Source of the DNA: a virus
Lineage: Duplodnaviria; Heunggongvirae; Uroviricota; Caudoviricetes
Virus record (IMG/VR): IMGVR_UViG_2740892210_000013
Strand: one strand, 5' to 3'
DNA length: 37,133 bases
Below, piece by piece: positions 33,634 to 37,133 of the stretch. Each line of letters begins with the position of its first letter. Positions within the stretch are counted from its first letter, which is position 1. The notes under the pieces were generated by a model. It saw only the letters and a list, made by a program, of their open reading frames with translations, made no database searches and was not told where the DNA came from. A program made the position numbers and the translations under genes.

Positions 33634-33790
33634 AGCTTCAGCCCCTTGTATCCGTTAAATGATTCGGCAACAATCATCACCCACCACGCGCGTAATCTCA
33701 CCCCTGCGCCGTTCTCCCGCCACGGCGACAACAAAAAGCAGTAACCCCCTCCGCACGCACATGCGACCATGCCGCACAGGGAGGGAGCAG

Positions 33791-34900
33791 ATGACCGACA
33801 CCACCATGCAATTGCTCAGTCAGGGCACAGACCCCGTAAAAATGCCGGATTTTGATATTCTCGCGGAGGGTAAAACGCTGTCAGGCGTGGCAGAGCGCCT
33901 GATGAGCCTGTCACTGACCGACAACCGGGGATTTGAGGCGGACCAGCTCACCATCACGCTGGATGATGCGGATGGTCAGTTGCAGCTACCGCCACGGGGC
34001 GCGCGCCTGACGGTTCTCATTGGCTGGAAGGGAGAACCGCTGACAGAAAAAGGCACTTACATTGTTGATGAAATCGCTCACGAAGGACCGCCGGACAGGC
34101 TGACTGTTTCAGCCAGAAGCGCAGATTTTCGGGATGAATTTAACGTTAAACATGAGGTGTCCTGGCATGATGTGACCGTTGAGCGTGTGGTATCCGCCAT
34201 CGCTCATCGGTATGGTCTGAAACCGCAAATCAGCGAAATGCTGATGGATATCGAAATCGACCACGCCGACCAGACCGAAGAAAGCGACATGTCCTTCCTT
34301 ACGCGCATGGCGGAAATGCTGGGCGCAATCACCACGGTAAAAAGCGGCAATCTGTTATTCATCATGCCAGGTGGTGGCGTGAACGCACAGGGCCAGCCGT
34401 TGCCCTCGTTCGCCATTACACGCAGCAGCGGCGATCGCCATCAGTTCCGCATTGCTGACCGCGAGGCGTATACGGGGGTACGCGCCTACTGGCTTGATCT
34501 TAATTACGGGAAAAAGAAAAAAGTCAGCGTGAAACGCCGTAAACCGCCAAAACCCAAAAAGGAGAAAAGCAGCAGCCGTGAAGGTGATTATATGGAAGGC
34601 GCGGAAGGCAATGTGTTTGTGTTACGCAAGACTTATCAGAACGAGCAGGCAGCAAGACGCGCAGCGGCGGCAAAGTGGCAGCAACTACAACGCGGAGCCG
34701 CATCATTCTCCATCACGCTGGCGCGTGGACGTGCAGAACTCTACCCCGAAATGCATGGCACGGTAACAGGATTTAAAAGCGAGATTGATAATCAGGACTG
34801 GATTATTGCAAAAGCCGAGCACACCATTGATAACAGCGGCTTTACCACGCAGCTTGAGCTTGAGGCAAAAATCCCGGAATGGATAGCGGAAACAGAGTGA
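33791..34900 (+). CDS. D: Tail protein gpD
   Basis: Start MTDTTMQLLS... with GGGAGG RBS; the ORF track starts 132 nt earlier; size and position before ogr fit P2 D. Confidence 0.8.
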   Translation: MTDTTMQLLSQGTDPVKMPDFDILAEGKTLSGVAERLMSLSLTDNRGFEADQLTITLDDADGQLQLPPRGARLTVLIGWKGEPLTEKGTYIVDEIAHEGPPDRLTVSARSADFRDEFNVKHEVSWHDVTVERVVSAIAHRYGLKPQISEMLMDIEIDHADQTEESDMSFLTRMAEMLGAITTVKSGNLLFIMPGGGVNAQGQPLPSFAITRSSGDRHQFRIADREAYTGVRAYWLDLNYGKKKKVSVKRRKPPKPKKEKSSSREGDYMEGAEGNVFVLRKTYQNEQAARRAAAAKWQQLQRGAASFSITLARGRAELYPEMHGTVTGFKSEIDNQDWIIAKAEHTIDNSGFTTQLELEAKIPEWIAETE

Positions 34901-34942
34901 GCAACTTAGAATAGCGACAGCACCACGTTAAGGGAGGTCGCT

Positions 34943-35203
34943 ATGTTCCGTTGTCCGCTTTGTGGCGCATCTGCCCGTATCCGCACCAGTCGTCCGGAAA
35001 ATGATTCAAACACCGTGCGGCAAAAGTATTACCAGTGTAACAACCTGGAATGCGGCGTATGCTTCTCAACACTGGAAGCTTTCCATAAATTCACATCGAA
35101 ACACGCCTCCGGCGTTCACTCATCAGAAGGTATCCCGTGGCATGAGCTGCCAGCTTCACACAGGGGAAACAATCAGATGAGTTTGCCTTTACCTCAGAAT
35201 TAA
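34943..35203 (+). CDS. ogr: Ogr/Delta-family zinc-finger late transcription activator
   Basis: MFRCPLCGASARIRTSR...YYQCNNLECGVCFSTLEAF with four Cys, resembling P2 Ogr (MFHCPLC...). Confidence 0.8.
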   Translation: MFRCPLCGASARIRTSRPENDSNTVRQKYYQCNNLECGVCFSTLEAFHKFTSKHASGVHSSEGIPWHELPASHRGNNQMSLPLPQN

Positions 35204-35291
35204 CAGGCAGAATTGCCGGAGTAACAAAAAAGCGATAGATTACGCGCGGGTGCCTTTCGGCTGATGGTCGGAGGGAATACCCGAAGGCCAG

Positions 35292-35477
35292 ATGTGGAAA
35301 GGCCCCGAGTCAACTTTAACGTTAACCCGAGGCCCTAACCATCTACCCTCAGCAAGTGATAGGTTAGCGCCTCCCCGAAAAAGGAGCAAGCGCTATGTCG
35401 CAAAAATCGCTTACGGCCATCACATTCTGCGTGACGGCAATCCTCATCATCTGGATGCTGCACGGTTCGCTGTGTGA
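35292..35477 (+). CDS. Possible mok-like overlapping reading frame of the hok locus
   Basis: 61-aa ORF overlapping the hok start in another frame, as in hok/mok/sok loci. Confidence 0.3.
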   Translation: MWKGPESTLTLTRGPNHLPSASDRLAPPRKRSKRYVAKIAYGHHILRDGNPHHLDAARFAV

Positions 35478-35535
35478 AATACGGATGAGTTTCTGGGGAG
35501 CGGAGTTTGCGGCGTTCTTACAGTGTAAGCAGTAA
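35395..35535 (+). CDS. Hok/Gef-family type I toxin (46 aa)
   Basis: MSQKSLTAITFCVTAILIIWMLHGSLCEIRMSFWGAEFAAFLQCKQ: N-terminal transmembrane helix plus the SLCEIR...E.AAF signature; AAGGAG RBS. Confidence 0.6.
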   Translation: MSQKSLTAITFCVTAILIIWMLHGSLCEIRMSFWGAEFAAFLQCKQ

Positions 35536-35629
35536 GGAAACCGCGACGGGGAAGGCAACTTCCCCGTCAATCGGTTGCCAGGGTAAAGGTCGAAAAGGCA
35601 CCCTATTTCCAGTTGACGTGAACAACAAG

Positions 35630-35661
35630 CCCGCAGCGTAAAAACTGCGGGTTTTCTTTTT
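35630..35661 (+). terminator. Intrinsic terminator at the hok mRNA 3' end (CCCGCAG-loop-CTGCGGG + T-run)
   Basis: Read directly. Confidence 0.55.
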
Positions 35662-35694
35662 GGTTCCCTCACTCATGAGGACACCAAAAAACAA

Positions 35695-35724
35695 AGCCCA
35701 CAGCATAGAAGCTGTGGGCTTTTT
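35695..35724. terminator. Bidirectional stem-loop (AGCCCACAGC-ATAGAA-GCTGTGGGCT) flanked by A/T runs
   Basis: Perfect 10-bp inverted repeat with T-runs on both strands. Confidence 0.55.
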
Positions 35725-35796
35725 GCATTCAAAGATGGACGTTATATGGACACTTAAAAATAAAATCCATTTATTTTCAAATGATTAAACCTCTAC

Positions 35797-35820
35797 TTAA
35801 AGCGCCCGCAGGCGCTTTTT
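35797..35820. terminator. Stem-loop (AAAGCGCC-CGCA-GGCGCTTTTT) just downstream of serS
   Basis: Read directly; lies ~20 nt beyond the serS stop. Confidence 0.45.
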
Positions 35821-35840
35821 AGATTCAGAAAAATTGGGTA

Positions 35841-37133
<1,293 letters not shown>

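Follow-up and report, generated by a model that had tools for sequence, protein, structure and literature searches.

The hok/sok (parB) module of plasmids R1 and R100 is the described system against which the locus analysed here can most closely be compared. Its elements are arranged in the order tac, ucb, antisense target hairpin, GAGG, dcb, hok Shine–Dalgarno sequence (SD), hok, fbi (fold-back inhibition element) and terminator, and the promoter of the antisense RNA Sok lies in the opposite orientation between the target and the hok start. The toxin has 52 residues and ends in ...MAYESGK. In R1, translational coupling through the mok reading frame is essential for hok. The tac element at the mRNA 5′ end has alternative partners, and the folding switch that they form is summarised in PMC9841398.

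Related loci are found on phages and on the chromosome. A type I module of the hok/sok kind is likewise carried by the Stx2 prophage Sp5. This module, hokW-sokW, is the only hok of a prophage whose role has been put to the test, and it makes phage release after induction faster and greater (Takada et al. 2021, PMC8621323). The Stx phages 933W (L0129 region) and Sp5 (VT2-Sakai) carry, in addition, an unnamed hok gene for a 46-residue peptide downstream of lom. E. coli K-12 has hokA–hokE, which belong to the same family as the peptide studied here, but none of these lies at serS. The diversity of Hok peptides has been cataloged in a preprint from which Mok and Sok were deliberately left out (bioRxiv 10.1101/2025.08.07.668861).

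We analysed a stretch of 37,133 nucleotides of viral DNA, referred to here as the window, in which a hok/mok-like locus had been predicted between ogr and serS. Both neighbours were found where the original prediction had put them. The features of the locus are collected in Table 1. They follow the same order as in R1/R100, the putative sok promoter again lies in antisense orientation between the target and the hok start, and the alternative partners of tac are the same as there. We conclude that this is very probably a type I toxin–antitoxin module of the hok/sok kind, with an R1-type RNA switch and a Sok-like antisense RNA, lying as accessory cargo in the interval from ogr to attR.

Table 1. 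Features of the hok locus and its surroundings, in window coordinates
Feature	Coordinates	Strand	Remarks
ogr/Delta-like late-gene activator of the P2-like prophage	34943..35203	+	Pfam Ogr_Delta, 52.4 bits; PGAP (identical genome)
Putative hok promoter	35213..35241	+	Read by hand; -10 box conserved
-35 box TTGCCG of putative hok promoter	35213..35218	+	17-nt spacer to -10
-10 box TAGATT of putative hok promoter	35236..35241	+	Start near G35248
Predicted full-length hok mRNA, ~415 nt	35248..35662	+	From RF01794 start, terminator and fold
tac element, mRNA 5′ end	35248..35262	+	Three alternative partners: local metastable hairpin, fbi and ucb
61-codon ORF in mok frame, ATG start	35292..35477	+	Probably fortuitous
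Putative Sok-like antisense RNA, ~60 nt	35292..35353, ends approximate	-	5′ single-stranded tail, 16-bp hairpin (35300..35337), UUUCC tail
ucb-like box GAAAGGCCCC	35297..35306	+	Partner of GAGGCC in the closed form and of tac in the truncated form
GAGG aligned to the R1 mok Shine–Dalgarno	35329..35332	+	Invariant; followed by no conserved start codon
Putative sok promoter	35361..35389	-	Aligns with the R1/R100 sok promoter region
-10 box TAACCT of putative sok promoter	35366..35361	-	Conserved hexamer
-35 box TTGCTC of putative sok promoter	35389..35384	-	17-nt spacer to -10
Hairpin sequestering the hok ribosome-binding site	35369..35387	+	Anti-SD GCCUCC (dcb-like, 35369..35374) with hok SD AAGGAG (35382..35387)
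hok toxin gene	35395..35535	+	46 aa, MSQKSLTAITFCVTAILIIWMLHGSLCEIRMSFWGAEFAAFLQCKQ; HOK_GEF, PHROG 251, PGAP
fbi (fold-back inhibition) element	35588..35603	+	Pairs with the mRNA 5′ end
Intrinsic terminator of hok mRNA	35627..35654	+	10-bp stem with 6 G-C pairs, then TCTTTTTGGT
attR core AAAGCGCCCGCAGGCGCTTT, the serS terminator hairpin and prophage right end	35799..35818	.	Empty-site comparison and attL copy
serS	35841..37133	-	Right-hand neighbour

We used profile searches and alignment to assess the 46-residue peptide, for which an exact sequence and a Hok/Gef-like character had been proposed. The ORF is present and its translation agrees with that sequence residue for residue. It scores 29.9 bits against the Pfam family PF01848 HOK_GEF over residues 7–44, the gathering score being 22, and matches PHROG 251 with E = 1e-22. 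In an alignment with R100 Hok, 39% of residues are identical over the 31-residue SLCEIR...AAF core. As the mark of the Hok/Gef family we took a score above the gathering score together with a SLCE-x-R ... E-x-AA core after an N-terminal hydrophobic helix; the peptide shows this combination in its Pfam score, in its core alignment to R100 Hok and in its PHROG match, and its ORF is a predicted toxin gene of that family. The best NCBIfam profile is HokA (NF007290), at 34 bits, far from the equivalog cutoff of 89 bits for that model. The peptide differs from that of R1/R100 in ending in ...FLQCKQ.

The gene is intact, widespread and already known. PGAP annotates the peptide in an identical genome as WP_000078916.1, a 'Hok/Gef family protein', and at least 1000 public contigs carry it under the same name. 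The preprint catalog holds the exact peptide as 72_1621, cloned on plasmid LRP137, in a high-abundance cluster (60% cluster no. 72; bioRxiv 10.1101/2025.08.07.668861). In that work 42 of 45 tested Hok homologues were toxic, in an assay based on over-expression from a fixed ribosome-binding site, and 72_1621 is not among the three named as non-toxic. In all 21 homologous loci that we compared, from Escherichia, Salmonella, Citrobacter and Klebsiella, the hok ORF stays at 46–47 codons, and the dN/dS of the window hok against 18 homologues is 0–0.54, with dS up to 1.75.

We next consider where the locus lies. The window is a P2-like prophage, with an integrase at its left end, gpD and the Ogr/Delta gene in 33659..35203 and serS at its right, and the hok module begins directly past the ogr stop codon. 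The segment had been predicted to be either phage cargo or part of the attR junction, and comparison with an unoccupied serS region distinguishes these. Identity between the window and the empty serS–dmsA site of a laboratory strain (L001) begins only at 35799, which places attR at 35799..35818. The 20-bp att core is duplicated at attL, beside the integrase and dmsA, in NZ_CP059332.1, a genome 100% identical to the window over 35200..35840. Because the match to the empty site starts at 35799 and the core recurs at attL, the hok locus can be assigned to the prophage as cargo and to neither the chromosome nor the att junction itself; the module ends 137 bp inside the prophage. Genomes that lack the prophage have no such segment at serS, and the empty serS region is without a hok locus, in keeping with the earlier statement that no hok gene is known beside serS in E. 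coli K-12.

The prophage is P88-like (Xuanwuvirus, P2-family) and is integrated in the serS terminator. At least 80% of the region 35200..35840, and with it the same hok–serS junction, is present in 293 of 5426 complete E. coli genomes, and nearly all of the remaining genomes match just the 42 bp adjoining serS. The ogr–hok order recurs in P88, Chuche, P88_4B11 and Citrobacter phage Shae_phiSM (Xuanwuvirus or Peduoviridae), the records of P88 and Shae_phiSM having no ogr CDS annotated at that position, as well as in P2-like prophages of Salmonella and in prophages that occupy other attachment sites in E. coli. The slot beside ogr holds other accessory cargo in relatives, including HicAB, Com with a methyltransferase, and TagO. 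A scan of genome contigs with an alignment as query gave only 7 loci. Three of these seven are on contigs labelled Planococcaceae, Vagococcus and Xanthomonas, which look like enterobacterial contamination.

The unnamed hok locus of the Stx phages belongs to the same clade as that of the window. The two share ~83% nucleotide identity over a stretch that begins at the -10 box and stops at fbi, exactly 35227..35603, and the 46-residue Stx-phage peptide is ~72–74% identical to that of the window. It is cataloged as 72_1589, in the same 60% cluster 72 as 72_1621 (bioRxiv 10.1101/2025.08.07.668861). The Stx-phage locus differs in its setting, which is a lambdoid phage (Sepvirinae) with other neighbours, in its stronger sok -35 box, TTGACT, and in its 3′ end after fbi. 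Judged from the extent of the shared stretch, the whole hok module has been transferred in one piece between P2-like and lambdoid phages.

Because 'MokW-like' labels are attached to this clade, we also considered whether the window locus is hokW-sokW itself. However, the primers used to study hokW define a different peptide, of 51 residues (MKQQKAM...DYESEK) and HokD type, and map at ~57.8 kb in VT2-Sakai (AP000363.1; primers from PMC8621323), whereas the window-type 46-residue hok lies at ~44.5 kb. Both Sp5 and 933W thus have two hok loci, and the published experiment concerns the other one. The PHROG label 'MokW-like host killing' on the window clade derives from the hokW-sokW naming.

The original prediction held that elements at the two ends of the mRNA pair over a long range, as in hok mRNAs. 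The pairing is present in the minimum free energy (MFE) fold and is conserved in the 21 loci, although the elements themselves need small corrections: the 5′ element GGGTGCCTTTCGG occupies 35248..35260, one base to the left of where it had been put, and 35590..35603 reads TCGAAAAGGCACCC and not CCGAAAAGGCACCC, the first base having been misread. The two elements are exactly complementary over 10 bp (GGGTGCCTTT with AAAGGCACCC). This 10-mer is found at just these two sites in the 37-kb window, where chance would give 0.10 matches; 2 matches were never reached in shuffles. The MFE fold of the 411 nt from 35248 to 35658 joins tac to fbi through 15 pairs with one bulged A, and has z = -6.4 relative to shuffles. 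The helix differs in its letters from that of R1/R100, with GGGUGCC/GGCACCC in the window and GGCGCUU/AAGCGCC in the plasmids.

We extended the analysis to covariation in an alignment of the 21 distinct homologous loci, from which a consensus structure was derived. Standard pairs fill 98.2% of the cells of its 76 predicted pairs, compared with 37–42% after a shift of the 3′ partners by 1–3 columns, and the covariation score is 0.203 compared with 0.03–0.05 in the shifted controls; these values apply to a structure taken from the same alignment that is being scored, and the changes mostly split the E. coli clade from the Salmonella clade and so represent few independent events. In the tac–fbi helix, 7 pairs are invariant and 4 are compensatory, the two partners having both changed in 9–12 sequences. 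Ten pairs make up the tac–ucb helix, which is paired in 97.1% of cells, and two of its pairs are compensatory in 7 loci. Positions 10–11 of tac covary with both fbi and ucb. The helix that sequesters the hok SD (helix 7) is also conserved across the aligned loci, and altogether three RNA helices are preserved by compensatory changes. Read from the aligned sequences, the coupled covariation of tac with fbi and with ucb is what characterises the hok folding switch. At least one relative, the Salmonella locus L019, has lost the tac end.

The predicted folds change with the length of the transcript in the manner of such a switch. In the nascent 173-nt fold, tac pairs with 35270..35282 in a metastable hairpin. 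In the full-length fold, tac pairs with fbi, GAGG with ucb, and CUCC (35371..35374) with GGAG of the hok SD (35383..35386). When fbi is removed by truncation of the 3′ end, the MFE structure pairs tac with ucb, and GAGG captures CCUC (35370..35373) from the hok SD. However, the predicted accessibility of the SD did not increase after truncation, its unpaired probability being 0.24–0.26 in the truncated and 0.34 in the full-length RNA. The activation step, in which truncation exposes the SD, is for this reason unproven in the folding model.

On the opposite strand, the segment that aligns with the antisense target has the features of a Sok-like RNA, which we infer to be encoded at ~35353..35292 (-). 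Over 72 nt of this strand, the fold has z = -5.9. Its hairpin has an energy of -26.8 kcal/mol, compared with -12.2 kcal/mol for the plus-strand counterpart, a difference of ~14 kcal/mol that arises because three positions that form G·U pairs on the minus strand become C·A mismatches in the plus-strand sequence. The minus-strand hairpin is the more stable by 5–15 kcal/mol in 21 of 21 loci. That the asymmetry is common to all of them argues for the minus-strand transcript as the selected structure. The tail predicted at the 3′ end, UUUCC, is a poor U-run. The putative sok promoter has hexamers that align with those of R1/R100, TTGCGC and TATCCT (read by hand on L025), and the -10 box is TAACCT or TATCCT in all loci aligned.

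We then assessed the ends of the hok mRNA. The Rfam model RF01794, which represents the hok leader in the hok sense, covers 35248..35408 (+) of the window over its full length, with model position 1 at 35248. The score of 42.8 bits (E = 4.5e-8) is significant, though it does not reach the gathering threshold of 59 bits; for comparison, the scores are 88.9 bits for the control R100 (same strand), 44.8 for a Salmonella relative and 35.6 for the 46-residue locus of Sp5. At the other end, the mRNA had been predicted to stop at a terminator, and a terminator-like hairpin followed by TCTTTTT is indeed detected 23 nt past fbi. In the Salmonella homologues, compensatory changes in the terminator stem (GCCCACGG...CCGTGGGC) are visible by eye. 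Other Rfam matches in 35600..35800, to a miRNA, a Thr leader and the like, fall far below their gathering scores and sit on terminator hairpins, and were discarded.

The promoters were placed less directly. A scan of 35100..35860 for the sigma-70 consensus listed no site, both putative promoters falling below its threshold, and their assignment is for this reason hand-read and rests on homology with R1. The putative hok promoter agrees with the consensus at 8 of 12 positions. In the homologues its -10 box, at a constant distance, reads TAGATT, TAGAAT or TAAATT.

A mok-like frame overlapping hok had also been predicted. Such a frame exists in the window as the 61-codon ORF, which is offset from the hok frame just as R1 mok is and begins 37 nt upstream of GAGG, but it is not conserved in the sister loci. 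In Chuche, P88, P88_4B11, the Stx phages and most loci from Salmonella, stops close the mok frame or a usable start is missing; in a minority of relatives it is open, with varying starts and varying ORF ends. We searched all frames with ATG, GTG and TTG as starts, and in a first pass also with CTG and ATN, in 9 and then in 21 homologues, and found no conserved mok; nor does any start codon conserved among the 21 homologues follow the invariant GAGG. Applied to R100, the identical ORF scan recovers the mok of 70 codons that has been published there, located after GAGG. An upstream ORF from the AUG or GUG at 35292/35294 is seen in the E. coli clade with varying frame and stop, and is absent from Salmonella. 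Thus, the 61-codon ORF is probably fortuitous, and the clade of 46-residue Hok peptides appears to lack a canonical mok.

Together, these features suggest a mechanism for a hok/sok-type module in the prophage. A stable hok mRNA of ~415 nt, running from 35248 to ~35662, would be locked by tac–fbi pairing, with the hok SD and AUG buried. Slow trimming of the 3′ end would remove fbi, upon which tac would bind ucb and free GAGGCC; this would then capture the hok anti-SD and expose the antisense target. As long as the short, unstable Sok-like RNA is made from the opposite strand, it would pair with the leader and prevent Hok synthesis, presumably through cleavage of the duplex. Should loss or induction of the prophage bring sok transcription to a stop, the 46-residue Hok would be made, insert into the inner membrane and kill or permeabilise the cell.

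How the Sok-like RNA would block hok is a separate matter. Because no mok is conserved here and coupling through mok is essential in R1, this step cannot be copied from the plasmid system. One tentative reading, which we hold as a serious possibility but not as the expected outcome, is that the 46-residue Hok clade (cluster 72) is a mok-less variant of hok/sok. GAGG would then be kept purely as an RNA element, held by ucb in the closed mRNA; 3′ trimming would free it to capture the hok anti-SD, and hok would be translated from its own AAGGAG. Rather than block a leader peptide, the Sok-like RNA would sequester GAGGCC and bring about cleavage of the duplex.

The hok/sok-type module could serve the prophage in several ways, and among these we would rank prophage addiction highest, then help with lysis on induction, and last the exclusion of other phages. 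A role in the lytic cycle would use the same architecture: induction would remove the Sok-like RNA, and Hok would damage the membrane early, speeding or increasing phage release. P2-type phages are generally not SOS-inducible, which counts against such a role here. The module does adjoin the late-gene activator ogr, and its clade is also present, downstream of lom, in the Stx phages 933W and Sp5. In the hokW-sokW system of Sp5, sokW RNA vanishes after mitomycin C, the appearance of HokW is RecA-dependent, and deletion of the module halves phage release (Takada et al. 2021, PMC8621323). However, because hokW is a different locus, with another peptide and another position in Sp5, this result is not directly transferable, and we regard a lytic role for the window module as rather unlikely.

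A role in abortive infection or exclusion seems to us unlikely. A superinfecting lytic phage would shut off host transcription, the Sok-like RNA would be depleted, and Hok would kill the cell before the invader finishes. Hok genes are enriched ~four-fold in prophages, as such a role might lead one to expect, but show no enrichment near defence systems (bioRxiv 10.1101/2025.08.07.668861). The accessory cargo found in the ogr-adjacent slot of relatives fits a role of this kind, and in earlier work, as cited in PMC8621323, R1 hok/sok lowers the plating efficiency and plaque size of T4; as described there, however, a high-copy plasmid was used and the effect was modest.

That the locus is an inactive relic, like the IS-disrupted hok loci of E. 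coli K-12, and conserved merely through the youth of the prophage, is very improbable: its clade has no recognisable mok, both promoters are weak relative to the consensus and at least one relative has lost the tac end, but the intact hok ORF across four genera with dN/dS below 1, the compensatory changes in three helices, the absence of 72_1621 from the non-toxic homologues and the transfer of the module as a unit all speak against it.

For annotators, the preferred reading of a hok/sok-type module means that the P88-like prophage at serS carries an intact killer module, and that this module may help to maintain the prophage or influence lysis or superinfection. Phage pipelines label it 'MokW-like', which is misleading, as the characterised hokW is a different gene. 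The modestly new point is that in an abundant Hok cluster the R1-type RNA switch, and with it the full hok/sok RNA architecture, is conserved and covaries, yet the mok ORF is apparently absent. Cluster 72 offers a convenient natural test of hok translation control without mok, and if the mok-less reading is true, the textbook need for mok would not be universal in the Hok family.

Within the final third of the hok reading frame, the stretch encoding GAEFAAF shows no variation, synonymous sites included. This stretch pairs with the hok start region, forming a 13-pair helix that is conserved in the 21-locus alignment. Here RNA structure constrains the coding sequence.

Coordinates of the hok-associated and right-end features
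Feature	Sequence	Position	Remarks
Shared P2-like/lambdoid stretch	window	35227..35603	hok -10 box to fbi
Helix, hok start region	window	35397..35411	
Helix, partner segment	window	35499..35513	
Second hairpin	window	35693..35722	12-bp, G+C-rich
att core	window	35799..35818	AAAGCGCCCGCAGGCGCTTT, 20 bp
Published hokW	AP000363.1	~57.8 kb	51 aa
Unnamed hok (L008)	AP000363.1	~44.5 kb	46 aa; downstream of lom
Tandem hok loci	L023	1501..2131	Salmonella contig
Tandem hok loci	L024	1501..2135	Salmonella contig

On two Salmonella contigs, 46-aa hok loci are duplicated in tandem, about 490 bp apart, with a separate tac (the mRNA 5' end) and fbi (its 3' partner) in each copy. Another Salmonella homologue (L019), located where a lambdoid prophage ends beside fieF/pfkA, has lost the tac 5' end to diverged sequence, but its fbi and hok ORF are retained; this copy may be decaying or re-wired. 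Enterobacterial hok sequences of 72–98% identity were also found on contigs labelled Planococcaceae MAG, Vagococcus sp. and Xanthomonas pisi (L011, L012 and L015), which probably represent assembly contamination.

The integration target of the prophage is the serS transcription terminator. The att core is the terminator hairpin itself, which at attR is restored by the phage copy of the core. Between attR and the hok terminator, the phage arm contains a second hairpin, and the A-runs and T-runs on either side of it make it terminator-like on both strands. Because similarity ends at ~35672..35680 in relatives integrated at other sites, this hairpin stretch belongs with the integration module.

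The region separating hok from the att/int end is a hotspot for cargo genes (loci L003, L007, L009 and L022). Com and a DNA methyltransferase occupy it in Chuche and in E. coli MFDS1022581; in Shae_phiSM the occupant is TagO, and in a Salmonella prophage it is HicAB.

The Stx phages Sp5/VT2-Sakai and 933W each carry two different hok loci, the published hokW and the unnamed 46-aa hok downstream of lom. We know of no study of the latter in its native context. The stretch common to P2-like and lambdoid (Stx) phages has the hok -10 box and fbi as its exact limits. This suggests that the hok module is transferred as a single unit, defined by its RNA.
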